64,000 nt of DNA from a bacterium (GCA_965233585.1 CBDDTI010000746.1:64001-128000), one strand, 5' to 3'. Shown: positions 9,384-59,640, numbered from the stretch's first letter. The notes: generated from the letters alone by a model not told the origin. Program-made: numbers and translations.

Positions 9384-9776
9384 TTAACCCAGCACTTTGA
9401 GAAATCCAATAATAAAAATGGTGGAAGACAAGGTCAAACCTAAAGACCAGAACATAAAACGGTCCATTCTGGCATTGACCATCTCAAATCTAGCATTGAC
9501 CATTTCAAATCCCTTTTTCATGTCCTCACGGAGTTCTCTATTTTCTTGTTTCATATCCTCACGGAGTTCTTTAATTTCTTGTTTCATATCCTCACGCAAG
9601 TCTTTCATGTCCTGACGCAACTCTACGTCAAGATGATGAAAATGATTGGTTTGTGATTTGAGAATCATAATGAGCTTGTCATCTTGAGAAAGCGGTTCTT
9701 CACCTTTTCTCAATTTATCTAATACCCGCTTGCTTTCTTCTGCAAGATATTCATCAAAAATATTACTTTCAAACAT
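9384..9776 (-). CDS. Small coiled-coil protein with C-terminal TM helix (CCDC90/DUF1640-like architecture)
   Basis: Conserved head MFESNIFDEYLAEE, ELREDMK repeats, RFMFWSLGLTLSSTIFIIGFL anchor. Confidence 0.85.
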   Translation of the reverse strand: MFESNIFDEYLAEESKRVLDKLRKGEEPLSQDDKLIMILKSQTNHFHHLDVELRQDMKDLREDMKQEIKELREDMKQENRELREDMKKGFEMVNARFEMVNARMDRFMFWSLGLTLSSTIFIIGFLKVLG

Positions 9777-9802: not shown

Positions 9803-10162
9803 TTAACCCAGCACTTTGAGAAATCCAATAATAAAAATGGTGGAAGACAAGGTCAAACCCAAAGACCAGAACATAAAACGGTCCATTCTGGCATTGACCA
9901 TCTCAAATCCCCTTTGCATATCCTCACGCAAGTCTTTCATATCTTTTTTCATGTCCTCACGGAGTTCTTTCATATCTTCACGCAAGTCTTTCATGTCTTG
10001 ACGCAATTCTACGTCAAGATGATGAAAGTGATTGGTCTGTGACTTGAGAATCATAATGAGCTTGTCATCTTGAGAAAGCGGTTCTTCACCTTTTCTCAAT
10101 TTATCTAATACCCGCCTGCTTTCTTCTGCAAGATATTCATCAAAAATATTACTTTCAAACAT
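9803..10162 (-). CDS. Small coiled-coil protein with C-terminal TM helix (array copy)
   Basis: Paralog of its neighbours, 119 aa. Confidence 0.85.
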   Translation of the reverse strand: MFESNIFDEYLAEESRRVLDKLRKGEEPLSQDDKLIMILKSQTNHFHHLDVELRQDMKDLREDMKELREDMKKDMKDLREDMQRGFEMVNARMDRFMFWSLGLTLSSTIFIIGFLKVLG

Positions 10163-10188: not shown

Positions 10189-10569
10189 TTAACCCAGCAC
10201 TTTGAGAAATCCAATAATAAAAATGGTGGAAGACAAGGTCAAACCTAAAGACCAGAACATAAAACGGTCCATTCTGGCATTGACCATCTCAAATCTAGCA
10301 TTGACCATTTCAAATCCCTTTTTCATGTCCTCACGGAGTTCTCTATTTTCTTGTTTCATATCCTCACGGAGTTCTTTCATGTCTTCACGGAGTTCTTTCA
10401 TGTCCTGACGCAACTCTACGTCAAGATGATGAAAGTGATTGGTTTGTGATTTGAGAATCATAATGAGTTTGTCATCTTGAGAAAGAGGCTCTTCGCCTTT
10501 TCTCAATTTGTCCAACACCCGCTTGCTTTCTTCTGCAAGATACTCATCAAAGATGTTACTTTCAAACAT
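10189..10569 (-). CDS. Small coiled-coil protein with C-terminal TM helix (array copy)
   Basis: Paralog of its neighbours, 126 aa. Confidence 0.85.
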   Translation of the reverse strand: MFESNIFDEYLAEESKRVLDKLRKGEEPLSQDDKLIMILKSQTNHFHHLDVELRQDMKELREDMKELREDMKQENRELREDMKKGFEMVNARFEMVNARMDRFMFWSLGLTLSSTIFIIGFLKVLG

Positions 10570-10596: not shown

Positions 10597-11109
10597 TTAA
10601 CCCAGCACTTTGAGAAATCCAATAATAAAAATGGTGGAAGACAAGGTCAAACCCAAAGACCAGAACATAAAACGGTCCATTCTGGCATTGACCATCTCAA
10701 ATCCTTTTTTCATATCCTCACGGAGTTCCTTATTTTCTCTTTGCATGTCCTCACGGAGTTCCTTATTTTCTCTTTTCATATCTTCACGGAGTTCTTTCAT
10801 GTCTCTTTGCATGTCCTCACGCAAATCTTTCATATCTCTTTGCATGTCCTCACGCAAGTCTTTCATATCTCTTTTCATATCCTCACGGAGTTCTTTCATA
10901 TCCTCACGGAGTTCTTTCATGTCTTCACGGAGTTCTTTCATATCCTCACGCAATTCCACGTCAAGATGATGAAAATGATTGGTTTGTGATTTGAGAATCA
11001 TAATGAGCTTGTCATCTTGAGAAAGAGGTTCTTCACCTTTTCTCAATTTATCCAACACCCGCTTGCTTTCTTCTGCAAGATACTCATCAAAAATATTACT
11101 TTCAAACAT
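10597..11109 (-). CDS. Small coiled-coil protein with C-terminal TM helix (longest array copy)
   Basis: Paralog, 170 aa, expanded 7- and 11-residue repeats. Confidence 0.85.
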   Translation of the reverse strand: MFESNIFDEYLAEESKRVLDKLRKGEEPLSQDDKLIMILKSQTNHFHHLDVELREDMKELREDMKELREDMKELREDMKRDMKDLREDMQRDMKDLREDMQRDMKELREDMKRENKELREDMQRENKELREDMKKGFEMVNARMDRFMFWSLGLTLSSTIFIIGFLKVLG

Positions 11110-13888: not shown

Positions 13889-14125
13889 TTAATTAGACAA
13901 ATGATTAAAGAAGTGAATAAAACTTTTGAGCGAACGTGGGGTATGATTGGCGGCATGATGATTTTGCACCTGCACCTTTTCATAAAGTTCTTCACGGTGA
14001 ACAGAATATTTAGACGGGGCTTCAATCCCCAAACGCACTTGCTTCCCTTTGATTTCTAACACACAAATTTTGACATTGTCCCCTATGACAATACATTGTC
14101 CTAACTTTCTGGATAAAATTAACAT
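13889..14125 (-). CDS. csrA: Carbon storage regulator CsrA
   Basis: MLILSRKLGQ.IVIGD, VRLGIEAP...VHREE. Confidence 0.97.
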   Translation of the reverse strand: MLILSRKLGQCIVIGDNVKICVLEIKGKQVRLGIEAPSKYSVHREELYEKVQVQNHHAANHTPRSLKSFIHFFNHLSN

Positions 14126-14146
14126 CTTTTTTTCAACCTCCTGTTG

Positions 14147-14861
14147 TTAGAAAATTTTCATTTTTTCAAAATCATTTACCAATACATTAATTGCTTTTTG
14201 AATACTTCCTTTTTCCAATGACTTGAAATAATTGGGTTTATGAATTGGTTTATCAACATGCCTTTCTCCTTCCAAAAAAGTCACAATTTTTAAATCTATT
14301 TCTGGAAAATACGACATCAATGTATGTGTAGAATAGCTGCCAAATATTTTTGTTTTGAATTGAGAGTAATCTCCACCAAGCTGGCTTTCTAATTGAAATA
14401 AATAACATATATAGATTGGGAAAAAGAGATCTCAACAAACTAAAATCTACTAAAATTCTTTTGATCATAGCATTTTCAGTATATGCTTTGCATTCTATAG
14501 CCATAACCAATTCTTTATCTATAAATATTTGTTTATCTACACTTATACCAAAATAGTACTGATTTATATTTGAGAGAATATACTTTTTAATCTCTTCATC
14601 TTGAATTTTATCAATATAATTTCTCTCTATTGGAATTTTTTGTTTTTTAGAATTGATTTCAATACGAGAAAAATCACCTCCGACTACTTCCCATGCAATC
14701 TTTACAATTTCTTCTGTAAGATATTCTTGCAACTTACCTTTAACACTTCTAATCATCCCACCATAAGAACGATTACTTTCTCTTGCATCTTTATCGACCA
14801 CTTTGACAACAGTATTATACTCTTCTATCAAATGATTAATTCTTTGTTTCAAATTCTTCAT
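14147..14861 (-). pseudogene. Putative type II restriction endonuclease with +1 frameshift
   Basis: VDKQ...IECK PD-(D/E)XK-type motif; after FPNL (~14410) a shifted frame reads CYLFQLESQLGGDYS...KMKIF* to stop 14147; total span 715 nt (3n+1); overlaps the MTase gene. Confidence 0.7.
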
Positions 14862-16050
14862 TAAAAAGTCTCATTTGTTTGGATTGCTCTTTGATTCTTT
14901 CTTTTGCTTTTTCGCAATAGTCTTCTGAAACATCAATGCCGATGTAGTTTCTATCTAACTGATTTGCCACAGCAGTCGTTGTTCCAACCCCATTAAAGGG
15001 ATCTAAGATGACATCATTTTGATAGCTAAAAAGTTTTAAAATCCGTTCTACTAATTCTTCAGGAAACATGGCAGGGTGTCCATAGTCTTTCATCTTTCTT
15101 TCAGGGGCAATAGACCACTTTGCCACAACCCATTTTTTAAACTCTTCTGCACTGATTGTCATATCATCTCTATTGCCTGACTTCTTTAAATCTCCTTTGC
15201 AAAAAATTTCTATAAACTCCCATGTATATTTTAAGTAAGGGTTACTTGGGCTTTTCCAACTTCCCCATGCCGTATATTTGCAATTATAATTATTTTTCTC
15301 CCACAAAATTTCACCTTTCCAAATGAGTTTTTGCTGAATAAAAAAGTTGCTAATGATATGATGAGACGGAATGTAGTCAGAAAACAAGGGTTGGACATTG
15401 ACAATCATTCTTCCACCATACTTCAAAATCCTGATACATTCTTGGAACACAGAAAACAATTTTTTAAAATAATCTTCCCAATAAAAGTCATCTTCATTCT
15501 TTTCATAATCCAAACCAAAGTTATACGGGGGTGAGGTCAAAATCAAATCAACAGAATTATCAGGTATTTTTTTTAATAATATCTCACTGTCTCCTTGTAT
15601 AATCTGATTGATAAGATGGTCATCTATTTTTTGATTTTCAGTTTGAAAATGATGATTTGCTGCATAGTAATACTTTTTCCTATTGGCTGCTTTTTCTTTT
15701 CTATTTTTAACTTTCCTTTCTTGATTATAATCTACATAGTTTCGTTTTTTTCCATTGATTCCATAGCTTTTAACTGAATCTATTTTTTCTAAAATTTCTA
15801 TAAAGATCGGTTGTTGAGTGGATTTTGAAAGCTGTTTTGTGATATTTTCTAATTCATTAAAATCTAATTCTCTCAATAAAATTGTGAGGACTTGCCCATT
15901 TAACTCCAGTTGGACTTCACTAACCGCAAAGGATTGATTGAATTGAGCAATCGCATTTGGATCTAATTGATGAGAGCAGTGGATTTTAATTTTTTTATAA
16001 ATGGTTTCTTCTGATTCTTCCACTGCTTCGCTGGTTTTCATTGCTTCCAT
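14836..16050 (-). CDS. Site-specific DNA methyltransferase (N4-C/N6-A, beta class)
   Basis: DLILTSPPYN, HPAMFPEEL, VILDPFNGVGTT. Confidence 0.93.
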   Translation of the reverse strand: MEAMKTSEAVEESEETIYKKIKIHCSHQLDPNAIAQFNQSFAVSEVQLELNGQVLTILLRELDFNELENITKQLSKSTQQPIFIEILEKIDSVKSYGINGKKRNYVDYNQERKVKNRKEKAANRKKYYYAANHHFQTENQKIDDHLINQIIQGDSEILLKKIPDNSVDLILTSPPYNFGLDYEKNEDDFYWEDYFKKLFSVFQECIRILKYGGRMIVNVQPLFSDYIPSHHIISNFFIQQKLIWKGEILWEKNNYNCKYTAWGSWKSPSNPYLKYTWEFIEIFCKGDLKKSGNRDDMTISAEEFKKWVVAKWSIAPERKMKDYGHPAMFPEELVERILKLFSYQNDVILDPFNGVGTTTAVANQLDRNYIGIDVSEDYCEKAKERIKEQSKQMRLFNEEFETKN

Positions 16051-23459: not shown

Positions 23460-23694
23460 GCTATTAAATACAATAAAAACATCACAGCATTATGACACAA
23501 TCTTTGGGTCATTGCAGAACTGCCTTTTGTCAACTGATGGCTTGTGTTTAAGTCATTGCTCATCTTGACTCGCTGTCTCTCTTTTTTTCTCACTTGCCTA
23601 ATCAATCAAAAATGACTCTGTTCTTTCAAAATCGTTTCCATTTTGTCTTCAAATTGGTTATGATTCTTGATTTGGCATTCTCACTCATAAGCTG

Positions 23695-24216
23695 ATGGAA
23701 ACCGCTTTACTTTTTGACACACTCAAGACCTCCAAACATTTGCAAGCCGCAGGCTTTGAACAAGAGCAAGCAGAGGCACTGACAGAAGAATTTAAATTTG
23801 TTGTAGAAAGCAACTTTGCGAAACTTTCAACCAAAGAACAAGTTTCTGCTTTAGAGACGAATCTCAATGAGAAACTGGAGCAAAAAGCCACCAAAGAACA
23901 AGTCACTCACTTACAAGAACAACTGGAGCAAAAAGCTACCAAAGAACAAGTCACTCACTTACAAGAACAACTGGAGCAAAAAGCTACCAAAGAACAAGTT
24001 TCTGCTTTAGAAATTAGCCTCAATGACAAGCTTGAGAAATTTGCTACCAAAGAAGATGTTCAAAATGAAATCAAAGAGGTCAAAGAAGACATCTATTTTT
24101 TAAAAGGAGACCAAAAGCTCCTTAAATGGATGGTCGGTTTTGGTATTTCTTTAAATCTGTTGACACTTGGAGTTGTGCTAGCTTTTTTGTTTACAGCTAC
24201 CCCTACTCCTACTTAA
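23695..24216 (+). CDS. DUF1640/CCDC90-like coiled-coil membrane protein
   Basis: FDTLK...LQAAGFEQEQAEAL head, repeated ATKEQV, C-terminal TM LLKWMVGFGISLNLL. Confidence 0.85.
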   Translation: METALLFDTLKTSKHLQAAGFEQEQAEALTEEFKFVVESNFAKLSTKEQVSALETNLNEKLEQKATKEQVTHLQEQLEQKATKEQVTHLQEQLEQKATKEQVSALEISLNDKLEKFATKEDVQNEIKEVKEDIYFLKGDQKLLKWMVGFGISLNLLTLGVVLAFLFTATPTPT

Positions 24217-24300
24217 CAACCCTGCTCCGAAAAACCACTTGACTCCAGCAAACACCACACCAACTGAGGGAACAAGAAAGCAAAGAAAGTGAGAAAAAAA

Positions 24301-24537
24301 CAGAGGTTGAGGGTCAAGGTGAGCAATGACGAAAAGACACGCCTGCAAAACCTCCTGTCATTCCGCACTTGATGCGGAATCTATCATCAAACCCAGCATG
24401 GATTCCTAACGACTGGATTCCTGCTTTCGCAGGAATGACAATAGTTGTCATTCTGTGTTTGACACGGAATCTCAAAAAACAAGAGTGAGAGCAGAATGAG
24501 AGAAAAGGGCAGATTGTGTGGCAAGTTCAGCAATGCC
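24301..24537. repeat. Cluster of palindromic REP-like elements (AGATT-stem-TCAAG-stem-AATGAC and GGATTCCTGCTTTCGCAGGAATGAC types)
   Basis: e.g. GTCATTCCGCACTTGATGCGGAATCT and GGATTCCTGCTTTCGCAGGAATGAC. Confidence 0.9.
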
Positions 24538-24539
24538 AT

Positions 24540-25295
24540 TCAAGGTTCAATGACTTTGATTTGGTCTGCTTCAGGTTGCAGGAGGTAAATTCCTTTGGCT
24601 TTGGCATGAGAGATGAAATGTTCTGGAATGCTTTGACACGCAAGCCCCAGATGAATTTGAAAATCCTGATACTGCGGAAAAACGACAGGGAATGTCTCCC
24701 TGTGCCTGAACACTTGGTCAAAGTCATCAAGACGTAGTTTGTGCTTCACTTCTACAATGAAGATGTGAAAGTCATTGTAAAAAACAACGTCATACTGTCC
24801 CATGACTTTTTTATCGCTTCTCCCCTTCACATTTTTATCCACAGAATCATAACGAATTTGTCCAATCGTGATGAATCCTTGTTCTTCTATCTCTCTTTGA
24901 CCAGTACGATAGTAAGCGTCTTCCTGTATGTCGCTTTCTACCGTGATGTAACTTTCCAGCTTCTTGTTGCTTTCTTTTCTCAATCGTCTTTCTTCCTTCA
25001 TTTCTTTCTCCCAAGCGGCATTGCGTTCTAGCCTTTCTTTTTCCCATCTGGCATCGGACTCTTGCACCTGCTTCTCCCAAGCGGCATTGCGTTCTACTCT
25101 TTCTTTTTCCCATCTAGCACTGGACTCTTGCACCTGCTTCTCCCAAGCGGCATTGCGTTCTAGCCTCTCTTTTTCCCATCTGGCATTGGACTCTTGCATC
25201 TGTTTGGCGACAGCATTGACTGTGTCATTGGCTTCCTTAGCAATGATGCTAGCTTCCGCCAAAATTTTTTCTATTCTATCTAAACGTTCTGACAT
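24540..25295 (-). CDS. Coiled-coil + PD-(D/E)XK nuclease-fold protein, copy 1
   Basis: Repetitive ERNAAWEKQVQES N-terminus; GQYDVVFYN...IVEVK motif. Confidence 0.85.
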   Translation of the reverse strand: MSERLDRIEKILAEASIIAKEANDTVNAVAKQMQESNARWEKERLERNAAWEKQVQESSARWEKERVERNAAWEKQVQESDARWEKERLERNAAWEKEMKEERRLRKESNKKLESYITVESDIQEDAYYRTGQREIEEQGFITIGQIRYDSVDKNVKGRSDKKVMGQYDVVFYNDFHIFIVEVKHKLRLDDFDQVFRHRETFPVVFPQYQDFQIHLGLACQSIPEHFISHAKAKGIYLLQPEADQIKVIEP

Positions 25296-25358
25296 CTTTA
25301 CCTTTCAATTTAAAATTCAAAAAACTTGAGTATAGCATTTTTTGACAAAAGAAAAAAA

Positions 25359-25740
25359 CAGATTGCGGGTCAAGGTGAGCAATGACAAGGAGACGATGGA
25401 ATAACGAAAAGACACGCCTGCAAACTCCTTTCGTCATTCCGCACTTGATGCGGAATCTATCAACAAAACCAAGCATGGATTCCTAACTTGACTGGATTCC
25501 TGCTTTCGCAGGAATGACAAGCCCACGCACGCAAGGTAGGGACAAACCCAAGTTTGTCCTGTGTTTGAAGAAGAATGAAATTGCGGGTCAAGCCCTCAAG
25601 GACTCTTCTGTCATTCCGTGCTTGACACGGAATCTATCATCAAACCAAGCGTGGATTCCTGCTTTCGCAGGAATGACAAGCCCACGCACGAAATGACAAG
25701 AAAGTGAGAAAAAACAGATTGCCCGTCAAGGCTCAATGAT
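25359..25740. repeat. REP-like spacer cluster (TCAAG-loop, TTTC-loop and GTAG-type palindromes)
   Basis: Includes GTAGGGACAAACCCAAGTTTGTCCT at 25536-25560. Confidence 0.9.
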
Positions 25741-26421
25741 TTTGATGTGGTCTGCTTCAGGTTGCAGGAGGTAAACTCCCTTAGCTTTGGCATGAGAGAT
25801 GAAATGTTCTGGAATGCTTTGGCAAGCAAGTCCCAGATGAATTTGAAAATCCTGATATCGTGGAAACACGACAGGGAACGTTTCTTTGTGCCTGAACACT
25901 TGGTCAAAGTCATCAAGGCGAAGTTTATGCTTCACTCCTACAATGAAGATGTGAGAACGATTATAAAAAACAACGTCATACTGCCCAACTACTTTCTCAA
26001 ATCTTCCCTTCACATTTTTATCTACAGAATCATAAGCAACCCCACCAATCATGATGAATCCTTTTTCTTCTATTTCTCTTTGACCAGTACAATAGTAGGC
26101 ATCTTCCTGTATGTCGCTTTCTACCGTGATGTAACGTTCCAGTTTCTTGTTGGTTTCCTTTCTCAATCGCCTTTCTTCCTTCATTTCTTTCTCCCAAGCG
26201 GCATTGGACTCTTGCATCTGCTTCTCCCAAGCGGCATTGCGTTCTACTCTTTCTTTCTCCCAAGCGGCATTGCGTTCTTCTTGCTTTTTAGTCAGCTCTG
26301 CTAACTGCTTGCTGTTTTCTTCTTGTTGCTTGCTGTTTTCTTCTTGCCGTTTTTTCAACTCCTGCATGCCTTTGGCATTTTCTTTCAAAATTGCCCAAAT
26401 CTCATCAAATCTTTCACTCAT
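25726..26421 (-). CDS. Coiled-coil + PD-(D/E)XK protein, copy 2 (catalytic E>G)
   Basis: IVGVK instead of IVEVK (codon 25936-25938). Confidence 0.85.
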   Translation of the reverse strand: MSERFDEIWAILKENAKGMQELKKRQEENSKQQEENSKQLAELTKKQEERNAAWEKERVERNAAWEKQMQESNAAWEKEMKEERRLRKETNKKLERYITVESDIQEDAYYCTGQREIEEKGFIMIGGVAYDSVDKNVKGRFEKVVGQYDVVFYNRSHIFIVGVKHKLRLDDFDQVFRHKETFPVVFPRYQDFQIHLGLACQSIPEHFISHAKAKGVYLLQPEADHIKIIEP

Positions 26422-26517
26422 CTTTATCTCCTTTCAATTTAAAATCTACAAGATAAAATATCTAGTCTAGCAGATTTTTTGAAAAAAGAATGAGAAAGAA
26501 GAACAAAAGAAAAAAAA

Positions 26518-26755
26518 CAGATTGCGGGTCAAGCCCACAATGACGAGAAAACACAACCCTGCAAACTCCTTTCGTCATTCCGTGCTTGACACGGAATCTA
26601 TCATCAAACTAAGCGTGGATTCCTAACTTGACTAGATTCGGGGCTTTGGCAGGAATGACAAGGAGACGCCTGCAAGTCACAACGTAGGGACAAACCCAAG
26701 TGTTTGTCCTGTGTTTGAAGAAAAAAACAGAGATTGCCCGTCAAGGCTCAATGAT
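26518..26755. repeat. REP-like spacer cluster
   Basis: Near-identical to 27480-27717; GTAG palindrome at 26684. Confidence 0.9.
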
Positions 26756-27382
26756 TTTGATTTGGTCTGCTTCAGGTTGCAGGAGGTAAACTCCCTTAGC
26801 TTTGGCATGAGAGATGAAATGTTCTGGAATGCTTTGGCAAGCAAGTCCCAGATGAATTTGAAAATCCTGATATCGTGGAAACACGACAGGGAACGTTTCT
26901 TTGTGCCTGAACACTTGGTCAAAGTCATCAAGGCGAAGTTTATGCTTCACTTCTACAATGAAGATGTGAGAACGATTATAAAAAACAACGTCATACTGCC
27001 CAACTACTTTCTCAAATCTTCCCTTCACATTTTTATCTACAGAATCATAAGCAATCCCACCAAGCATGATGAATCCTTTTTCTTCTATTTCTCTTTGACC
27101 AGTACGATAGTAGGCATCTTCCTGTATGTCGCTTTCTACCGTGATGTAACTTTCTAGCTTTTTGTTGCTTTCTTTTCTCAATCGCCTTTCTTCCTTCATT
27201 TCTTTTTCCCAAGCGGCATTGGACTCTTGCATCTGCTTCTCCCAAGCGGCATTGCGTTCTTCTTGCTGTTTTGTTAGCTGTGCTAGCTGTTCATCCGTCT
27301 TTTCTTGCCGTTTTTTCAACTCCTGCATGCCTTTGGCATTTTCTTTCAAAATTGCCCAAATCTCATCAAATCTTTCACTCAT
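26741..27382 (-). CDS. Coiled-coil + PD-(D/E)XK protein, copy 3
   Basis: Paralog, 213 aa, IVEVK intact. Confidence 0.85.
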   Translation of the reverse strand: MSERFDEIWAILKENAKGMQELKKRQEKTDEQLAQLTKQQEERNAAWEKQMQESNAAWEKEMKEERRLRKESNKKLESYITVESDIQEDAYYRTGQREIEEKGFIMLGGIAYDSVDKNVKGRFEKVVGQYDVVFYNRSHIFIVEVKHKLRLDDFDQVFRHKETFPVVFPRYQDFQIHLGLACQSIPEHFISHAKAKGVYLLQPEADQIKIIEP

Positions 27383-27479
27383 CTTTGTCCCCCTTTCAAT
27401 TTAAAATCTACAAGATAAAATATCTAGTCTAGCAGATTTTTTGAAAAAAGAATGAGAAAGAAGAACAAAAGAAAAAAAA

Positions 27480-27717
27480 CAAATTGCGGGTCAAGCCCAC
27501 AATGACGAGAAAACACAACCCTGCAAACTCCTTTCGTCATTCCGCACTTGATGCGGAATCTATCACCAAACCAAGCGTGGATTCCTAACTTGACTAGATT
27601 CGGGGCTTTGGCAGGAATGACAAGGAGACGCCTGCAAGTCACAACGTAGGGACAAACCCAAGTGTTTGTCCTGTGTTTGAAGAAAAAAACAGAGGTTGAG
27701 GCTCAAGGTTCAATGAC
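27480..27717. repeat. REP-like spacer cluster
   Basis: Same palindrome set; GTAG palindrome at 27646. Confidence 0.9.
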
Positions 27718-28377
27718 TTTGATTTGGTCTGCTTCAGGTTGCAGGAGGTAAACTCCTTTGGCTTTGGCATGAGAGATGAAATGTTCTGGAATGCTTTGGC
27801 ACGCAAGTCCTAGATGAATTTGAAAATCCTGATATCGTGGAAACACGACAGGGAATGTTTCTTTGTGTCTGAATACTTGGTCAAAGTCATCAAGGCGAAG
27901 TTTGTGCTTCACTTCCACAATGAAAATGTGAGAACGATTATAAAAAACAACGTCATACTGCCCAACTACTTTCTCAAATCTTCCCTTCACATTTTTATCT
28001 ACAGAATCATAAGCAACCCCACCAATCATGATGAATCCTTGTTCTTCTATTTCTCTTTGACCAGTACGATAGTAAGCGTCTTCCTGTATGTCGCTTTCTA
28101 CCGTGATGTAACTTTCCAGCTTCTTGTTGCTTTCTTTTCTCAATCGTCTTTCTTCCTTCATTTCTTTCTCCCAAGCGGCATTGCGTTCTAGCCTCTCTTT
28201 TTCCCATCTGGCATCGGACTCTTGCACCTGCTTCTCCCAAGCGGCATTGCGTTCTTCTTGCTTTTTAGTCAGTTCTGCTAACTGCTTGCTGTTTTCTTCT
28301 TGCCGTTTTTTCAACTCCTGCATGCCTTTGGCATTTTCTTTCAAAATTGCCCAAATCTCATCAAATCTTTCACTCAT
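27703..28377 (-). CDS. Coiled-coil + PD-(D/E)XK protein, copy 4
   Basis: Paralog, 224 aa. Confidence 0.85.
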   Translation of the reverse strand: MSERFDEIWAILKENAKGMQELKKRQEENSKQLAELTKKQEERNAAWEKQVQESDARWEKERLERNAAWEKEMKEERRLRKESNKKLESYITVESDIQEDAYYRTGQREIEEQGFIMIGGVAYDSVDKNVKGRFEKVVGQYDVVFYNRSHIFIVEVKHKLRLDDFDQVFRHKETFPVVFPRYQDFQIHLGLACQSIPEHFISHAKAKGVYLLQPEADQIKVIEP

Positions 28378-28473
28378 CTTTGTCCCCCTTTCAATTCAAA
28401 ATTTATAAATCCAAACACTTAGTCTAGCAGATTTCTTGAGAAAAAGAATGAGAAAGAACAACGCAAGGCAAAA

Positions 28474-28664
28474 CAGATTGCGGGTCAAGCCCGCAATGAC
28501 AATCCTTGTTCATCAAACCAAGCGTGGATTCCTAACTTGACTAGATTCGGGGCTTTGGCAGGAATGACAAGGAGACGCCTGCAAGTCACAACGTAGGGAC
28601 AAACCCAAGTGTTTGTCCTGTGTTTGAAGAAAAAAACAGAGGTTGAGGCTCAAGGTTCAATGAC
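28474..28664. repeat. REP-like spacer cluster
   Basis: Perfect ATTGCGGG-TCAAG-CCCGCAAT within 28474-28500; GTAG palindrome at 28593. Confidence 0.9.
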
Positions 28665-29393
28665 TTTGATTTGGTCTGCTTCAGGTTGCAGGAGGTAAAT
28701 TCCTTTGGCTTTGGCATGAGAGATGAGATGTTCTGGAATGCTTTGACACGCAAGCCCCAGGTGAATTTTAAAATCCCGATATTGTGGAAAAACGACAGGG
28801 AAAGTTTCCCTGTGCCTAAACACTTGGTCAAAGTCATCAAGACGAAGTTTATGCTTCACTTCTACAATGAAGATGTGAAAGTCATTGTAAAAAACAACGT
28901 CATACTGTCCGATGACTTTTTTATCGCTTCTCCCCTTCACATTTTTATCTACAGAATCATAACGAATTTGTCCAATTATGATGAATCCTTGTTCTTCTAT
29001 TTCTCTTTGACCAGTACGATAGTAAGCGTCTTCCTGTATGTCACTTTCTACCGTGATGTAACTTTCTAGCTTCTTGTTGCTTTCTTTTCTCAATCGTCTT
29101 TCTTCCTTCATTTCTTTTTCCCAAGCGGCATTGCGTTCTAGCCTTTCTTTTTCCCATCTGGCACTGGATTCTTGTACCTGCTTCTCCCAAGCGGCATTGC
29201 GTTCTAGCCTCTCTTTTTCCCATCTGGCACTGGATTCTTGTACCTGCTTCTCCCAAGCGGCATTGCGTTCTTGCATCTGTTTTGCAAATTCTTCTTGCTT
29301 TTTAGTCAATTCTGCTAACTGCTTGCTATTTTCTTCTTGTTGTTTGCTATTTTCTTCCAAGATTTTTTCTATTCTATCTAAACGTTCTGACAT
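28650..29393 (-). CDS. Coiled-coil + PD-(D/E)XK protein, copy 5
   Basis: Paralog, 247 aa. Confidence 0.85.
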   Translation of the reverse strand: MSERLDRIEKILEENSKQQEENSKQLAELTKKQEEFAKQMQERNAAWEKQVQESSARWEKERLERNAAWEKQVQESSARWEKERLERNAAWEKEMKEERRLRKESNKKLESYITVESDIQEDAYYRTGQREIEEQGFIIIGQIRYDSVDKNVKGRSDKKVIGQYDVVFYNDFHIFIVEVKHKLRLDDFDQVFRHRETFPVVFPQYRDFKIHLGLACQSIPEHLISHAKAKGIYLLQPEADQIKVIEP

Positions 29394-29509
29394 TTGTACC
29401 TCTCCAATTGAAGATTATTAAGTTTAAACACACTCAGTCTAACAGATTTTTGAAAAAAAGAATTACAGAAGAATGAGAAAGAAAACAAAATAAGAGTAAG
29501 AAAAAAGAG

Positions 29510-29940
29510 AGATTGCTGGACAAGACACGCCTGCAAATTCCTCTGTCATTCTGCACTTGATGCGGAATTTATCACCAAACCAAGCATGGACTCCTGCTTT
29601 CGCTCCGAATGACGGAAACACAAGCCCGCAAGTTACAACGTAGGGACAAACCCAAGTTTGTCCTGTGTTTTAAGAAGAATGAGATTGCGGGGTCAAGCCC
29701 GCAATGACGGGAACACAAACACGCGATGACAAGGAGACGCACGCAAGTTACAACGTAGGGACAAACCCAAGTGTTTGTCCTGTGTTTTAAGAAGAATGAG
29801 ATTGCATGTCAAGGTGAGCCATGACTACCCCGTCATTCTGTGCTTGATGCGGAATCTATCACCAAACTCAGCATGGATTCCTAAACGTGACTGGATTCCT
29901 GCCTTCGCAGGAATGACATTTTTCAAACCTGCAATGACAA
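29510..29940. repeat. REP-like cluster with two GTAG palindromes and gene-free TCAAG sites
   Basis: GTAG elements at 29640 and 29755, each followed by GATTGC..TCAAG..ATGAC. Confidence 0.88.
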
Positions 29941-29943
29941 ACG

Positions 29944-32900
29944 TTACGAACGAGCAGGAATTTCCACACCGCACAAGTAGTAAAAGGTTTTACTACCATA
30001 ATGTCTTCTACTCCAAGTGCCACTTGAGCCTGAATTAATGTTTACGACACGAGTCATAGTATCCCCCCCTGCGTTAGCAGTCAGATAATAAGTGCTAGTA
30101 CCACCGATTATATCTTTAGCTAGTGTCCTACCTCCGCCAGAGGTGGTTTCAGGCATGAAGTTGTGAGAATTGACATTTTGGTAACTGAACATGTTTTTGC
30201 AAGTATTAGCATCATAAGCTGGTACGGTATTGCCTTCTTTGCGATAGAACCAGAGTTTGCCGTCTTTGTCCAGATGGAAGTCATCACCTTTGAGCTTTGT
30301 GAATCCTCCAACATCAAACTCTTTGATGGCATTGGTGGAGTCATGGGTGTCGTTGTTGGTGGTGAATGACAGGACGTTGCCAGCCAAATCTTTAAGCGGT
30401 TTGGCACCGATGCTAGTCATAATCCCAATTTGATAAGTGGCATTGAGCTTCCAAGTTTCTTTGGGAATGATGACATGGTTCTTGCCATTTCCTTTTTTGA
30501 CAAAGACGGCATCGCAGTTGACAAAGCCATCAGCAGAGACAAGCAAGGTGTTTGCCGTGGTAGAGCAAGCACCTCTGGTGCTTTGAGAGACCAATGTCTG
30601 TTCTGTGTCTAATTTCAAAACAGAACGTCCATAGGCTTTGCCTGCTGAATCCTGCATTTTAGACATAGCACTCAAAGAACTTACATCAACCCAGACATCG
30701 TTGACTTCGCCTCCATCATTCCCTCCTAACACCCAGATTCTGTTGTTGAACACCAGACTGCTATGAGCCAAACGTGCTGCCCAGCCCGCAGAGGCAGTGC
30801 TTTCAGTCCAAGTGCTGCCGTCACTAGAAGACCAGACATCGTTTTTGTAGCCTCTTGCAGCCCCACCTAATACCCACATTTTTCCATTGAAAACAACAGC
30901 TTGATGAGAAACACGTGCTGCCCAATCTGCGGAGGCAGTGCTTTGAGTCCAATTGACGCCATCGCTAGAATGCCAGACATCGTTGACTCCGCCTCTAGAA
31001 TTCCCTCCTAGCACCCACATTTTTCCATTGAACACCACACTGCTATGACTAGAGCGAGCAGACCAGCCCGCAGAGGCAGTGCTTTGAGTCCAATTGACGC
31101 CATCGCTAGAAGACCAGACATCGTTTTTTCTGACTCTATCATTCCCTCCTAACACCCAGATTTTGCTATTAAACACCACACTGCTATGACTAGAGCGAGC
31201 AGACCAGCCCGCAGAGGCAGTGCTTTGAGTCCAATTGACGCCATCGCTAGAAGACCAGACATCGTTTTTATTGCTTCCATCATATCCTCCGATGACCCAG
31301 ATTTTGCCATTAAACACCACACTGCTATGACTAGAGCGAGCCGACCAGCCTGCTGAGTCCGTGGCTTCAGTCCAAGTGCTGCCATCGCTAGAGTACCAGA
31401 CATCGTTGACTACGCCTCCATCAGTCCCTCCTAACACCCAGATTTTGCCATTGAACAGGACACTACTATGCCCGTAACGTTCTGACCAGTCTGCTGAGTT
31501 TGTGGCTTCTTTCCAAACGGAGTTGATTTGCACAGCAGGACTTGCGGCAGACAGTGCGGAACAACCAGCCGAATTGCAGCCTTTGACTCTGTAATAGTAA
31601 GAGTCTGCTGGGAGGTCATGCTGTCCATAAGTCGTTGCTGTTGTTGTTGTTGCGGCAATTTGAAAAGCAGAGGCAGTGGTGGTGTGTGATTGGTACAATT
31701 TGTAACTGCTGGCTAGTGATGCAGCATTCCAGACCACTTTAACAGAATCAAGGGCTTCTTTGCTGGCACTGGCAATGGTCGGAATAGCAGGTTTTTCTAT
31801 CAACGTCACGTTTGTTTCACTGGATTTGGCAGATTCTCCCCCAATGTTCACAGCAGAGATTGTGTAGTAGTTGGTTGAGCCGCTGGTCAGTCCTGTATCA
31901 GTGTAGGAAAGGACTGAACCATCAAGAGTTGTATGGACTAAATTGTTGACACTGCCTGAAGTGGTGCCGTGATAGATTTTGTAACTGGTGGCGTCTGACA
32001 CAGCCGACCAAGTGAGCTTAATTTGTGTCTCTGACCCTGTTACTTGAGCCACTGCTAAATCTGCGGGGGTGTCTGGTTTTTCTGTCAAAGTGATGCTTTT
32101 CTCAGTTGATGTGTCAGACTCGCCCCAGAGATTGACCGCAGAGATTTTGTAAAAATAAGTGAGTCCTTTAGTGGGAACTGTGTCCGTGTAAGAAGTGGTT
32201 GTGCCAGTGTGTGCCAGCGAATAAGCCCCGCCTGAAGTTTTGCGATAGACTTTGTAACTGTTCGCTGTCGCAACAGCATTCCAAGTCAGCTGGCTTTTAG
32301 TTTCTGAATTTTGAACTTGAGCCACTGCTAAACCTGTTGGTTTGGCAGGTTTTTCTATCAAAGCAACACTTTTCTCACTTGATTTGGAAGATTCTCCAGC
32401 GACATTGACAGCAGAGATTTTATAGTAGTAAGTGCGTCCTTTGGTGGGCACTGTATCAGTGTAAGTTGTTGCAGAACCATCAGCAGTGGTGTGAACTGAC
32501 GTGTTGACGTTGCCTGAAGTGTTGCTGCGATAGATTTTGTAACTGGTGGCTGATGTGGTGGCATTCCAAGTCAGCTGGCTTTTAGTCTCTGAATTTGCAA
32601 CTTGAGCTACTGCTAATCCTGTTGGTGCAGCAGATTTTTCTACCAGCGTCACGTTTGTTTCACTGGATTTGGCAGATTCTCCCCCAATGTTCACAGCAGA
32701 GATTTGGTAGTAGTAAGTGATTCCTTTAGTCGGAACTGTATCAGTGTAAGTTATTGTAGAACCATCAGCAGTGGTGTGAACTTGTGAGTAGCCTGTGCCT
32801 GAAGCAGTGCTGCGATAGATTTTGTAACTGTTAGCTCCCGTGGTGGCATTCCAAGTCAATTTAGCTTCTGTCTCTGACCCTGCCACTTGAACCACTGCTA

Positions 32901-35061
32901 AGCCTGTTGGTGCAGCAGATTTTTCTATCAACGCCACGCTTTTCTCAACTGATTTGGCAGATTCTCCAGCGACATTGACAGCAGAGATTTTGTAGTAGTA
33001 AGTGTTGCCTTTGGTGAGTCCTGTGTTAGTGTAAGTCGTTGTAGCACCATCATTGATTGTGTGAACTTGTGAGTAGCCTGTGCCTGAAGTGGTGCTGCGA
33101 TAGATTTTGTAACTGGTGGCTCCTGTGACGGCATTCCAAGTCAGCTTTGCCTGTGTCTCTGTTCCTTGAACTTGAACCACTGCCAAGCCTGTTGGTGCAG
33201 CAGTCGGTTTGGTTTGCAAGGTCAAAGAGACGCCTGTTAGATAAGTTTCTCCTGTCTCAGAGACAGCAGAGATGCGGTATTGATAAACTCCTGCTTGAGT
33301 CAATCCTGAATCTGTCCAGCTGGTCGTTGAAGCATCAGCAGTGGTGTGAATCAACTCCCAACTTCCATCTGGTTTTTGACGATAGATTTTGTAATGTTTG
33401 ATGACAGACACATCAACAGGCAGAGACCATGACAAGTTAGCAGTATCGCTAGAACTTTGAGTGGCTTTGGGATTCTGGACAAAACGTCTGGCACTGGCAG
33501 TGAGTGAATCAGTTTGAGCAGAACAAGCAGAGCCTTGGCAGAACTCCAGACGGTAATTGTAAGTTTTGTTGGCATCAACAGAAGTGTCTGAATAAGGAGA
33601 GCTGGCATTGGTTGCAAGTGTTGCAAACGAATCACTTGAAGACAATTTGCGATAGATGTTGTAGCTCATGCCTTGCTTATGCTTCCATGAGATTTGCGGA
33701 GGAGAATTGCCAACAAAGGTGATGTCTTCCACCAGTCCGCTCAAAGCCGCAGAAACCTGACACTCATTGCCTGAAGCGACAAAAGACTCATCGTGTTTGT
33801 TCTGATACTTGACAGCACCACACTGGTTGGCAGTGGCTGGGGTGTAAACATATTGCCCTGATGAGTTCAAAGTCAGTTCACTGTCTGCCTTGACTCCTGC
33901 AATAGCAAGTGCAAATCCTTTGGCTGATGAAGGATTGTTTTGAATCCCTGCTTGAAAAGAGAGGGGAGTTTTTTGATCAAGTCCAAAGCTGGTAGGTGTC
34001 TGGTCATCTTTTTCTCTGACGCCTAGCGAGTATTTAACGGGGTTGCTGTTCCATGATTGCTTGGGAATGACAAGGTATTGACCATCTTGGGTTGGCGTCA
34101 AGTCAACAGGTTCACAAGTGCTGAAGTTGTCTTTGGAGACAAGCAACGTTCCTTTTTGGTTGGAACACGCATGGCTTGCATCATAAGGAGTTTGGGAGGC
34201 AACCAGCGGAGTTTGAGTTTTCAAAAGCAGAGGGCTGAGGGCGAAAGTCTTGCTATCGCTGTCTTGAAGTGTTTGGAGTTCTGCAATCAAGAAAGGGTCG
34301 CAGTTGACTTGAAACTCTTGCATCGGGAGTTGTTCGCTTTTCTCTGGGTCTGCAGTTTTGACTTTCAAACTCACTTTGAGCTTTTTGACTTTGTCAGCAT
34401 AGTCCATCAAGTCAAACTGCATGGCAGACTGACTCATTTCCCCAAGTTTCTTGCCTTCTCCATCATAGATTTCAAGGTCTGCGACATAACCCCTGCTGCC
34501 GACGTTTGCAGTCTGTTCGCCAGACATAGACAGCTGAAACGCACAACTTGACCCTGTGCTTCTTTGATGGGCAAGTTGTCCTGTGATAGGAAAATGCTTG
34601 CCTGCTGGTCTGATTTTGACCTTGACTTCTGTCACGCCTGATTCTCTAAACTGAAAACTCCCAGAAATCCCAGTTTGATGCACTCCGTAACGCACGGATT
34701 CTGTGGCAGTGACGTCTTCTTCTTCATAACCTCTGACTTGAACAATCCAGTCTCCGCTAGTGTCTTCAAAGTCTAATTTGGTGTAGTAATTCTCATCAAG
34801 CCTGAGAACGCTTTTTGCTTTTTCAAATTCTTCTTTGAGAGAAAGCCCTGCTTGGTAGTCTTCTGCTCTAAAAATCAAAGCATAGTTTGACCGAATGGTC
34901 GCTTTGTCCCACTTGGAAGAAGACGCACTTGAGTCTGCCCCAATGGACAACTGCACACTTTCTTTGCCCCCTTCTGAATTACAAGAAGACAGCACCATCA
35001 CGCTTAACAACACACCACCAACCAACTGAAAACCACTTTTGCATTTTTTAAAGAAACTCAT
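29944..35061 (-). CDS. Large surface lipoprotein with about 7 fibronectin type III repeats and a Kelch-like beta-propeller
   Basis: Start MSFFKK (RBS CAGGAGG), lipobox LSSC; FN3 repeats (PTGLAV...LTWNA...SYKIYRS...YYYKISAVN..GES); six SSVVFNGKIWVLGG...NDVWSSSDG repeats. Confidence 0.9.
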   Translation of the reverse strand: MSFFKKCKSGFQLVGGVLLSVMVLSSCNSEGGKESVQLSIGADSSASSSKWDKATIRSNYALIFRAEDYQAGLSLKEEFEKAKSVLRLDENYYTKLDFEDTSGDWIVQVRGYEEEDVTATESVRYGVHQTGISGSFQFRESGVTEVKVKIRPAGKHFPITGQLAHQRSTGSSCAFQLSMSGEQTANVGSRGYVADLEIYDGEGKKLGEMSQSAMQFDLMDYADKVKKLKVSLKVKTADPEKSEQLPMQEFQVNCDPFLIAELQTLQDSDSKTFALSPLLLKTQTPLVASQTPYDASHACSNQKGTLLVSKDNFSTCEPVDLTPTQDGQYLVIPKQSWNSNPVKYSLGVREKDDQTPTSFGLDQKTPLSFQAGIQNNPSSAKGFALAIAGVKADSELTLNSSGQYVYTPATANQCGAVKYQNKHDESFVASGNECQVSAALSGLVEDITFVGNSPPQISWKHKQGMSYNIYRKLSSSDSFATLATNASSPYSDTSVDANKTYNYRLEFCQGSACSAQTDSLTASARRFVQNPKATQSSSDTANLSWSLPVDVSVIKHYKIYRQKPDGSWELIHTTADASTTSWTDSGLTQAGVYQYRISAVSETGETYLTGVSLTLQTKPTAAPTGLAVVQVQGTETQAKLTWNAVTGATSYKIYRSTTSGTGYSQVHTINDGATTTYTNTGLTKGNTYYYKISAVNVAGESAKSVEKSVALIEKSAAPTGLAVVQVAGSETEAKLTWNATTGANSYKIYRSTASGTGYSQVHTTADGSTITYTDTVPTKGITYYYQISAVNIGGESAKSSETNVTLVEKSAAPTGLAVAQVANSETKSQLTWNATTSATSYKIYRSNTSGNVNTSVHTTADGSATTYTDTVPTKGRTYYYKISAVNVAGESSKSSEKSVALIEKPAKPTGLAVAQVQNSETKSQLTWNAVATANSYKVYRKTSGGAYSLAHTGTTTSYTDTVPTKGLTYFYKISAVNLWGESDTSTEKSITLTEKPDTPADLAVAQVTGSETQIKLTWSAVSDATSYKIYHGTTSGSVNNLVHTTLDGSVLSYTDTGLTSGSTNYYTISAVNIGGESAKSSETNVTLIEKPAIPTIASASKEALDSVKVVWNAASLASSYKLYQSHTTTASAFQIAATTTTATTYGQHDLPADSYYYRVKGCNSAGCSALSAASPAVQINSVWKEATNSADWSERYGHSSVLFNGKIWVLGGTDGGVVNDVWYSSDGSTWTEATDSAGWSARSSHSSVVFNGKIWVIGGYDGSNKNDVWSSSDGVNWTQSTASAGWSARSSHSSVVFNSKIWVLGGNDRVRKNDVWSSSDGVNWTQSTASAGWSARSSHSSVVFNGKMWVLGGNSRGGVNDVWHSSDGVNWTQSTASADWAARVSHQAVVFNGKMWVLGGAARGYKNDVWSSSDGSTWTESTASAGWAARLAHSSLVFNNRIWVLGGNDGGEVNDVWVDVSSLSAMSKMQDSAGKAYGRSVLKLDTEQTLVSQSTRGACSTTANTLLVSADGFVNCDAVFVKKGNGKNHVIIPKETWKLNATYQIGIMTSIGAKPLKDLAGNVLSFTTNNDTHDSTNAIKEFDVGGFTKLKGDDFHLDKDGKLWFYRKEGNTVPAYDANTCKNMFSYQNVNSHNFMPETTSGGGRTLAKDIIGGTSTYYLTANAGGDTMTRVVNINSGSSGTWSRRHYGSKTFYYLCGVEIPARS

Positions 35062-35199
35062 CAAAACCTCCTGAAACTTAAACACGAAAAAAGACAATTT
35101 ATGACTAAATGAAAACAAAGAAAATGATACATGAAACAAAAAATACATGCAAGGGGATTTTTGAAAAGAAAGCTGAGTGGTGAGAATTTTTTGAGCTTT

Positions 35200-58880: not shown

Positions 58881-59640
58881 GGCATTGTTAAGTAATAAGT
58901 GATAGCTGATTATTCCGTTTTGCCATGAACAAAAGAACAGAATATTGTAATGCTTTAAGAGACTTGCTGTAACATTTGGTTTTCCTTCTCATTCTTGCCA
59001 AGAAATGTCTCAAGAGAGAATTATACCCTTCTATCGTGTATGTTTCTGCCTTGGAACATGTATGAATTTCTTTGGGAATGACTTGTTTGTAAGCCTTGCA
59101 GTGATCAGTCATCACCTGAAGAGGTTTTGTTTCCTTGACCTTGTCCCATAAATGCCTACAGGCTTTTGAGTCTCTGTTTCCAAGCACATAATTGATAAAT
59201 TGCTTCCCACATCTATCAACAGCAATCCAGAGCCAGCAGTAGTTTTTTTTGACTGGATGTAGGTGTGCATTTCATCAATTTCCATAATTTCAATGTCTGT
59301 GTCCTTTCTTAATGCCTTGAGCTGTTCGCCAAAACTACAGACCCAATTATAAACTGAAACATGAGAACAATTCAGCAAACGACCGATTGACCTGAAACCA
59401 AGACCCTCCAAATACAACTCTAATGCTCTTCTTTTGATCTGTGGTGAGATTTGACCACGATAGGACTTGGTATATTGATAGTTGCAGGCATTGCAACGCC
59501 TCCTCGGTTTACCATATAAAAAACCATTCTTAACCATCTTCTCACTTTCACATCTAGGACACGACTTCATTGCTACACCATGACTATCAATTCAATTAAA
59601 TGAACTTAATATCGCATATCACTTATAGTTTAACAATACC
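58881..59640 (-). mobile_element. IS1-family insertion sequence (760 bp)
   Basis: Imperfect IRs GGCATTGTTAAGTAATAAGTGATA / GGTATTGTTAAACTATAAGTGATA; flanks TACAAAAC/TACAAAAG. Confidence 0.93.
58888..59570 (-). CDS. IS1 transposase (InsA/InsB, -1 frameshift at A8C)
   Basis: CPRC...C..C zinc finger, HTH, EIDEMH; AAAAAAAAC at ~59242-59250; VMTDH, TYTIEGYNSLLRHFLAR..RKTKCYSKS. Confidence 0.92.

Follow-up and report, generated by a model that had tools for sequence, protein, structure and literature searches.

A 64,000-nucleotide stretch of bacterial DNA (GCA_965233585.1 CBDDTI010000746.1:64001-128000; hereafter, the window) contains five paralogous genes, g1 to g5, that alternate with clusters of short hairpin repeats of the repetitive extragenic palindrome (REP) type. 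We conclude that this locus probably represents a single gene-plus-REP unit amplified in tandem and not, as an initial annotation had proposed, an integron-like array of gene cassettes delimited by REPs. The five open reading frames (ORFs) are arranged head to tail on the minus strand and encode proteins of 213-251 amino acids (aa) that are 80-88% identical to g1 in a protein alignment of the paralogs; they differ from one another chiefly in how many 33/66-nt (11/22-aa) repeats their N-terminal portion contains. Each of the five genes has its own upstream sequence (~100 nt) and a ribosome-binding site, and consensus promoter scans upstream of the genes gave results no better than shuffles. Flanking the array are the 3' ends of two other genes, one on the plus strand for a coiled-coil protein (23695-24216) and one on the minus strand for a 1734-aa FN3/Kelch protein (29944-35148).

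The repeats fall into four types. Types A and B, read on the tag strand, share the plan (C/T)GTC-ATTsssss-CTTGA-sssssAAT-CT, with five free stem positions (sssss); type C is TGTC-ATTCCTGC-GAAA-GCAGGAAT-CCAG; and type D, present in 4 identical 33-nt copies, has the GTAG head and the palindrome, here a 9-bp stem, of GTAG REPs. A structural filter for CGTC hairpins (8-bp stem starting with AT, loop of 4-5 nt, CGTC or TGTC tag) retrieved 17 hairpins from the window, 15 of these within 24357-29917, compared with 0-1 in shuffles. No family was detected in an Rfam scan of 23500-30500 at E-values up to 1.

Gene ends homologous to free-standing hairpin repeats

The initial annotation placed the TGA stop codon of all five paralogs within TCAAG-G(C/T)TC-AATGA(C/T), and the sequence bears this out: TCAAGGYTCAATGAY, with at most one mismatch, occurs five times in the window (24540, 25726, 26741, 27703, and 28650) against 0.06 occurrences expected from shuffles, and each match begins at the stop codon of one minus-strand paralog. 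Copies 2 and 3 also retain the left arm, as claimed, with AGATTGCCCG present on the left. In local alignments, the end of g4 matches the free-standing site 24302-24330 in 35 of 39 columns (z 18.6), and the end of g2 matches the site 26519-26544 in 29 of 35 columns (z 9.4). Judging from these alignments, the gene ends are homologous to the free-standing local hairpin repeats. The homology starts at GTCATTG (codons V-I-E), extending no further into the gene, and continues beyond the stop codon through the right arm and the T-rich tail.

The stop codons had been said to sit in the core of palindromic sites. The overlap with relatives of REPs stands but the palindrome does not: as single-stranded DNA (ssDNA), the gene-end sites yield -2.3 to -3.7 kcal/mol (z +0.22 to -1.39), folding no better than shuffles, and the REP stem is not formed. 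The four intact free-standing A copies fold at -5.8 to -9.1 kcal/mol (z -3.0 to -5.3), and the B and C copies at about -8 kcal/mol. With paralogs 80-88% identical, the five overlaps are not independent and amount to a single event. All five gene ends have their left arm shortened in the same way, which argues for one origin of the overlap.

The codons involved appear to have a deeper history. The sequence (V/I)I(A/E/T)P-stop is found at one position in P0005-P0010, P0018, P0019, P0020, and P0022, and homologs down to <50% identity end at this same residue: those of 54-58% identity end with IIAP or VIAP, and the C-termini of P0018, P0019, P0020, and P0022, which are 50%-cluster representatives, coincide as well. 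More distant relatives, two of them encoded on the window's own contig, keep V-I-T-P followed by ~12 further residues, and in the wider family the V-I-x-P region forms the last beta-strand. From these comparisons, the V-I-x-P residues look older than the array. By our own estimate from codon choices, a protein ending in V-I-E-P-stop would have the DNA GTCATTG..CCTTGA by chance in roughly 1 of 144 cases. The REP right arm after the stop codon is not in doubt; the REP head at the gene end may have been inserted or may be a chance resemblance of the old codons. We considered and dismissed the possibility that the free-standing A sites are relics of deleted gene copies: the homology stops at GTCATTG in all 8 of the 8 sites compared, and the 14 nt upstream of the homology are unrelated.

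The genes and their terminal sites are as follows.

g1, 24540..25295, minus strand: 251 aa, type I body; 66-nt intragenic tandem repeat in three copies
g2, 25726..26421, minus strand: 231 aa, type II body; Gly for the conserved Glu of the E-x-K motif (IVGVK vs IVEVK)
g3, 26741..27382, minus strand: 213 aa, type II
g4, 27703..28377, minus strand: 224 aa, mosaic of type II and type I; the modelled protein
g5, 28650..29393, minus strand: 247 aa, type I
g1 gene-end site, 24510..24554, minus strand: decayed A-type REP (GTCATTGAACC-TTGA), then a partial second site copy; -2.3 kcal/mol, z +0.22
g2 gene-end site, 25717..25740, minus strand: ATCATTGAGCC-TTGA-CGGGCAATC; stop codon TGA in the core
g3 gene-end site, 26732..26755, minus strand: REP stem not formed
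g4 gene-end site, 27694..27717, minus strand: GTCATTGAACC-TTGA-GCCTCAACC
g5 gene-end site, 28641..28664, minus strand: REP stem not formed

Tandem units and mosaic genes

The spacers between the genes repeat together with the genes. Spacers IG2, IG3, and IG4 align over their whole length, each running through a promoter region, A, B, a degenerate C, D, and the gene-end site, so that gene and spacer recur as whole head-to-tail units, which fits tandem duplication. As the initial annotation had it, every start codon is preceded, at a distance of 64-117 nt, by an A-type site in the same orientation (25359, 26519, 27481, and 28475, with only a left arm at 29510-29519), and a table of 14 A-like sites confirms that each promoter-plus-gene unit is bracketed by direct A-type copies. 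The spacers and the A-type sites upstream of the genes are listed below.

A2 variant, non-palindromic, 25359..25386, minus strand: 64 nt upstream of the g1 start
A-type CGTC REP, 26519..26544, minus strand: 98 nt upstream of the g2 start; hairpin and T run, terminator-like on the gene strand
A-type REP upstream of g3, 27481..27506, minus strand: terminator-like
A-type REP upstream of g4, 28475..28500, minus strand: perfect 8-bp stem; terminator-like
A-type left arm only, 29510..29519, minus strand: 117 nt upstream of the g5 start
Spacer IG0, 24217..24509: REP cluster with A2 24302-24330, B 24357-24382, C 24415-24439, B' 24447-24472
Spacer IG1, 25296..25716: double REP cluster, the halves without a gene between them; A2, B 25433-25458, C 25494-25518, D 25536-25566, then A variant 25578-25603, B 25610-25635, C 25653-25677
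Spacer IG2, 26422..26731: promoter region, A, B 26574-26599, degenerate C, D 26684-26716 (GTAG-headed)
Spacer IG3, 27383..27693: same plan as IG2, with B 27536-27561 and D 27646-27678
Spacer IG4, 28378..28640: same plan as IG2 with B deleted; D 28593-28625
Spacer IG5, 29394..29943: gene-less REP run to the FN3/Kelch stop codon; B 29545-29570, D-like 29643-29664, A 29684-29708, D 29755-29787, A2 29798-29825, B 29832-29857, C 29893-29917, and an A left-arm remnant ending at 29938

The genes themselves are mosaic. At informative sites, g4 groups with g2 and g3 at 28374-28257, with g1 and g5 at 28227-28041, and again with g2 and g3 at 28021-27808, and its grouping alternates near the 3' end. A homolog encoded on another contig of a related strain, P0007, combines a type I N-terminus and a type II middle with a type I segment 15 residues later. 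Junctions had been expected to cluster at TCAAG; the breakpoints of g4 and P0007 lie inside the coding sequence, which is the very observation that the initial annotation named as contradicting its proposal. At the downstream boundaries, the identity between g1 and g5 reaches as far as the TTGA core, beyond which the two cannot be aligned; that between g2 and g3 takes in the right arm, with divergence setting in where the T run ends. A-linker-D junctions without a gene are present at 25603, 29708, and 29825. From the arrangement of these sequences, it is plausible, and indeed likely, that the REPs are the join points of the units.

The proposed integron-like excision and insertion of units

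Under the cassette hypothesis, an enzyme specific for hairpins and encoded elsewhere (a RAYT, for instance, or a GIY-YIG nuclease of the Ssn type) would excise and insert promoter-plus-gene units at the TCAAG core of the A-type sites. The direct A-type copies around every unit, the end of the g1/g5 identity at the TTGA core, and the gene-less junctions, which resemble 'empty' versions of the arrangement A...gene...A'-linker-D, are all compatible with such a process, and hairpins of the same class are the targets of a Neisseria ssDNA nuclease, the gene for which lies between two such hairpins (PMC11893778). We nevertheless consider this hypothesis very unlikely. The gene-end sites cannot form a hairpin, the array holds one gene family only, and breakpoints also occur inside the genes. 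The 'empty' sites are intact and have self-complementary arms, so they are not hybrids with the present gene-end arms, and deletion between direct repeats by general recombination would yield the same sites. Ssn is described as cutting ssDNA, and rejoining is not among the activities reported in the part of PMC11893778 used here.

No candidate enzyme was found in the window either: integrase, RAYT, and GIY-YIG proteins were all missing among 54 ORFs of at least 120 aa searched against NCBIfam, and among 26 ORFs and 24 small ORFs searched against Pfam. The statement that the window encodes no recombinase thus holds for these three families but overlooks an insertion sequence (IS) transposase of the IS1 family, in two pieces at 58888-59570. 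Neither an integrase in the window, nor a folding attC-like site, nor diverse, mostly promoterless cassette genes were observed. What survives of the proposal is that REP-type sites bracket the units and are likely join points; the analogy to integrons is not borne out by the tests made here.

A widespread class of CGTC-tagged repeats

CGTC-tagged REPs consist of an unpaired CGTC/TGTC tag, stems of 8-9 bp starting with AT, loops of 4-5 nt, and a short tail (PMC3733652); the class includes dRS3/NTS of Neisseria and RPE-4/RPE-6 of Rickettsia (PMC3733652, PMC11893778). The repeats in the window are members of this class. According to the portions of PMC3733652 used here, REPs mostly lie within 20 bp of ORF 3' ends, their termini frequently contribute a stop codon, some copies are located within ORFs, clusters of REPs reiterated together with flanking DNA have already been described, and the CGTC repeats have no associated transposase. 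Three C-type copies differ from the Neisseria NTS consensus (PMC11893778) at 3 positions, two of which form a compensating pair.

We scanned one genome per species for the design of types A and B, using the pattern GTCATTSNNNNCTTGANNNNSAATCT. The combination of tag, stem, CTTGA loop, stem, and tail was found at no fewer than 132 loci (445,436 bases in total) in Bacteroidota, Campylobacterota, Patescibacteria, Dehalococcoidia, Gastranaerophilales, and other groups. Among at least 142 distinct sites, all five free stem positions are complementary in 115, four in 21, three in 5, and none in 1. The matches listed include 36 different left arms, and the base before GTC is T in 72 sites and C in 62. 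What had been called a local REP thus belongs to a widespread, structurally conserved class because the design recurs across phyla with covarying stems. Identical A-type hairpins in metagenome-assembled genomes (MAGs) of several phyla led us to reject an origin of the repeats from the gene in the window.

Most of the listed 142 sites are intergenic (107), 23 lie inside ORFs of at least 120 aa, and 6 overlap an ORF 3' end; at two loci, L032 and L039, the stop codon is the TGA of the CTTGA loop. A literature search on repeat-encoded peptides and hairpins returned no match. Four of the 23 sites inside ORFs belong to a 1204-aa glycosyltransferase-like ORF from a Sulfurimonas sp. MAG (L067:1186-4800), a strong case of intragenic REPs: these CGTC hairpins, as well as partial copies present in runs, are all read in frame (RHSVLDTES is one resulting peptide). 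Partial copies of the tag and left arm, two to four in tandem with a short spacer, often precede complete hairpins, as in L003, L025, L036, and L101; the partial second site copy after the core at the end of g1 (24510-24554) is similar to these reiterations. An equal hairpin spacing of 1448 nt in L007 and L046 proved to be a coincidence, the hairpins being without homology.

The membership in this class brings up a possible function of the hairpins. SsnA, a GIY-YIG nuclease, binds the NTS hairpin in ssDNA and cuts beside it, ssnA itself lying between two NTS, and NTS cluster around certain non-essential genes, lowering their replacement by transformation (PMC11893778, as far as quoted here). 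The hairpins in the window might similarly be recognized by an ssDNA nuclease of the Ssn type with its gene elsewhere, which would cut incoming single strands next to them and in this way lower the replacement of the bracketed genes by transformation. The shared design of tag, stem, loop, and tail, the near match of the C-type sites to the NTS consensus, with its compensatory pair, and the reported clustering of NTS at particular non-essential genes point in this direction, but no site in the window matches the published degenerate search string for Ssn-related motifs (PMC11893778), and no GIY-YIG gene was found in the window. We regard such a role as rather unlikely; it concerns the function of the hairpins and is compatible with an origin of the array by tandem duplication. 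A GIY-YIG-like ORF picked up by a motif pattern in L032 had no support from Pfam.

A coiled-coil/PD-(D/E)XK protein family

Searches of the five proteins against Pfam and NCBIfam, and of g4 and g5 against PADLOC, gave nothing significant. The label 'coiled-coil/PD-(D/E)XK' given by the initial annotation is upheld by a structure model, the fold matches, and a conserved motif. For g4, AlphaFold2 was run with an alignment of 17 sequences; the resulting model has a mean predicted local distance difference test (pLDDT) score of 85.7 and consists of a single long helix (residues 2-113) followed by an alpha/beta domain with the restriction-endonuclease-like fold of the PD-(D/E)XK superfamily. Foldseek matches of this domain to PD-(D/E)XK-fold structures in the PDB include 1xmx (E 2e-4), XisH (2okf/2inb), R2 endonuclease, NucS/EndoMS, and Card1/Can2. 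In the D...E-x-K motif, D142 and K157 are invariant among the 17 sequences, and E155 nearly so; the catalytic Glu is kept in four of the five window paralogs and replaced by Gly in g2, which may accordingly be catalytically dead. By the model, the paralogs are coiled-coil and PD-(D/E)XK proteins, and the protein is probably a nuclease.

The family is rare: a profile search returned 1406 cluster representatives at E <= 0.001 out of 1.84 billion. Some relatives have weak, mostly sub-threshold matches to Card1_endonuc, PDDEXK_10, or DUF3782 in Pfam, and relatives, not g4 or g5, match CARF_PDDEXK in PADLOC. A search of genome contigs with a pattern from the family alignment gave 69 pattern matches and 0 confirmed members, and tblastn of g4 and P0030 against plasmids gave no match.

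Contacts between the family and hairpins in other genomes

A family profile run over six-frame translations of the listed 132 hairpin loci detected two members. The first, in a Sulfuricurvum sp. MAG (L075:2948-3738), is a homolog of 192 aa (E 4.4e-25); its neighbours are dnaJ and a Sel1-like gene, and an exact copy of the NTS consensus lies on either side of it. The reading frame continues through an oppositely oriented A-type hairpin, which gives the last 8 residues and the stop codon, and a close relative, P0124, ends just before that tail. In the second, from a Bdellovibrionales MAG (L056:2452-3261), an insertion of 119 bp (2970-3088) interrupts the gene between the two copies of a directly duplicated 7-bp sequence (CTATTTA). 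The insertion comprises a CGTC hairpin and a D-like hairpin with short inverted ends, and removal of the insertion and one copy of the duplication restores the frame. This suggests that the hairpin pair moves as a unit akin to miniature inverted-repeat transposable elements (MITEs), and the case has the look of a dispensable gene hit at random. Because the family is so rare, two contacts in ~65 independent regions look above chance, an impression that depends on the background frequency in hairpin-rich genomes.

These contacts bear on the possibility that CGTC-type hairpins or cruciforms are the substrate of the PD-(D/E)XK protein itself, as a structure-specific nuclease, with the repeats piling up around its own gene. 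There are parallels for such an arrangement in GTAG REPs around RAYT genes and NTS around ssnA. Hairpins in the window are found only around these genes, the Sulfuricurvum homolog is a single gene between two exact NTS copies with an A-type hairpin giving its end, and the fold matches include XisH and nucleases for branched or mismatched DNA. Yet 130 of the 132 listed hairpin loci lack a family member, none of 164 family proteins includes a peptide encoded by a perfect hairpin, the conserved Glu is missing from g2, and the Bdellovibrionales contact is a gene-breaking insertion of the kind that random insertion would give. Moreover, this repeat class already has a known dedicated partner, the GIY-YIG nuclease Ssn (PMC11893778, in the part cited). 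A hairpin-specific role of the PD-(D/E)XK protein is, in our estimation, highly unlikely.

Proposed history and transcription of the array

The anatomy of the locus, the homology of the gene ends to the repeats, their loss of folding, the mosaicism, and the CGTC-class membership of the repeats are directly shown by the sequence. Returning to tandem amplification as the probable origin of the array, we infer from these the following order of events, together with recombination at the REPs and termination of transcription. The 3' end of the ancestral gene would have come to overlap one A-type REP before amplification, such that the REP head (GTCATTG) and loop (CTTGA) coincided with the last codons V/I-I-E-P and the stop codon, and the right arm and T-rich tail fell downstream of the stop; the stem of that copy would have been lost since. 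A unit of ~1 kb, consisting of the promoter region, the nuclease-like gene, and a 3' hairpin cluster of CGTC-tagged REPs A, B, and C and the GTAG-headed D, would then have been amplified to five copies. Both this amplification and later changes in copy number probably proceeded by unequal recombination between the many direct REP copies, with the REPs serving as join points through being repeated and not as dedicated recombinase sites. The mosaicism of the paralogs would come from gene conversion together with gain and loss of the 33/66-nt coiled-coil repeats.

A terminator scan of the minus strand flagged A sites at 26541, 27503, 28497, and 29705. The transcript of each unit would pass the decayed gene-end site and then the D, C, and B hairpins, and the intact A hairpin with its T run at the far end of the spacer probably terminates it ~100 nt before the next start codon. 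The REP cluster would thus be a structured 3' untranslated region (UTR).

Several observations weigh against this account. On the downstream side, the alignment between neighbouring units breaks off at two points, both of them within the gene-end element, which hints at a hot spot beyond plain homology. The 14 A-like sites combine arms, tails, and downstream modules in several ways; in particular, the right arms CGGGCAATCT and CCTCAACCTCTG are each joined to both downstream kinds, so that all four combinations exist, and the mixture therefore implies exchanges within ~40 nt or recurrent mutation. The only two family relatives in ~445 kb of hairpin loci both touch hairpins, which tandem duplication leaves unexplained. 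As for the predicted 3' UTR, its folding as a whole is no better than that of shuffles (z -1.18). Finally, the 58 kb of the window outside the array contain no convincing repeat copy that would speak for genome-wide dispersal of these REPs in this organism.

One way to accommodate such signals would be for the A-type core to be a true break-and-join point at which units are gained, lost, and reshuffled by an Ssn-type nuclease encoded elsewhere or by the PD-(D/E)XK protein itself. This is improbable in our view; if true, it would amount to a gene-cassette system built on REPs and would explain the hairpin contacts of the Sulfuricurvum and Bdellovibrionales MAG homologs.

As it stands, the locus combines three known things, namely a CGTC/NTS-type repeat in a gene end, a REP cluster amplified with a neighbouring gene, and exchange between the copies by gene conversion. 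It would gain weight if the residual signals, that is, the junctions in the repeat and the contact between the nuclease family and hairpins in distant genomes, were real. A gene family travelling with CGTC-type repeats, if there is one, would offer a handle on the spread and role of these repeats outside Neisseria.

Genomic neighborhood

The product of the convergent neighbour at 23695-24216 is a coiled-coil protein in which KATKEQV(T/S)-type units recur and a hydrophobic segment lies at the C-terminus; its CCDC90-like match is weak and sub-threshold. On the other side, the TAA stop codon of the FN3/Kelch gene is followed 5 nt on by a truncated A-type left arm and core (GTCATTGCAGGTTTGA, 29925-29946), so this gene, like the paralogs, abuts a REP cluster. 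Four adjoining minus-strand ORFs (9384-9776, 9803-10162, 10189-10569, and 10597-11109) have similar weak helical-repeat matches (Apolipoprotein, Hormone_1) and may be a second small set of tandem paralogs.

An adenine-specific DNA methyltransferase gene (14836-16050) amid flagellar genes coincides with a dip in the guanine-plus-cytosine (GC) fraction to 0.31 at 14000-16000; this region is possibly acquired DNA. As to the source of the DNA, a feature search based on FlhA led no further than Pseudomonadota. The two overlapping ORF pieces of the IS1-family transposase lie at the edge of a low-GC stretch (GC 0.29-0.36) that extends from 58 kb onwards and includes glycosyltransferase genes.

Comparison with known repeat systems

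The array shares with integron attC arrays the single orientation of the genes, the structured repeats between them, and a repeat adjoining each 3' end. In contrast to attC arrays, it has no integrase in the 64-kb window, its gene-end sites are unfolded, each unit carries its own upstream region, and a single gene family is interspersed with several hairpin types instead of one attC.

The hairpins agree with known CGTC-tagged REPs in the tag, the 8-bp stem starting from AT, the loop of 4 nt (type C) or 5 nt (A and B), and the short tail, as well as in forming head-to-head pairs and large clusters near ORF 3' ends, sometimes inside ORFs or giving the stop codon. They differ in that one copy appears to have been absorbed into a gene end and copied five times with the gene, and in being confined to one locus in 64 kb. 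With the NTS/Ssn system, the locus has in common the hairpin class and the NTS-gene-NTS bracket around non-essential genes, as in the Sulfuricurvum homolog with its two exact NTS copies. Unlike that system, there is no ssn gene in the window, the window sites fail the degenerate string, and the CTTGA loop of types A and B is not among the motifs quoted from PMC11893778.

In REPtrons, a RAYT gene is flanked by GTAG REPs. Here, too, a nuclease-family gene is flanked by REPs, and the D elements are GTAG-headed, but the fold is PD-(D/E)XK and not that of an HUH Y1 transposase, and the bracketing A sites are direct and not inverted. REPs reportedly lie at the join point of tandem duplications, new ones in enteric bacteria, which by its title is the subject of work by Shyamala, Schneider and Ames in 1990. 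The array described here likewise has repeated palindromes as likely join points, with the difference that it is old enough for its copies to be 12-20% apart in protein sequence.

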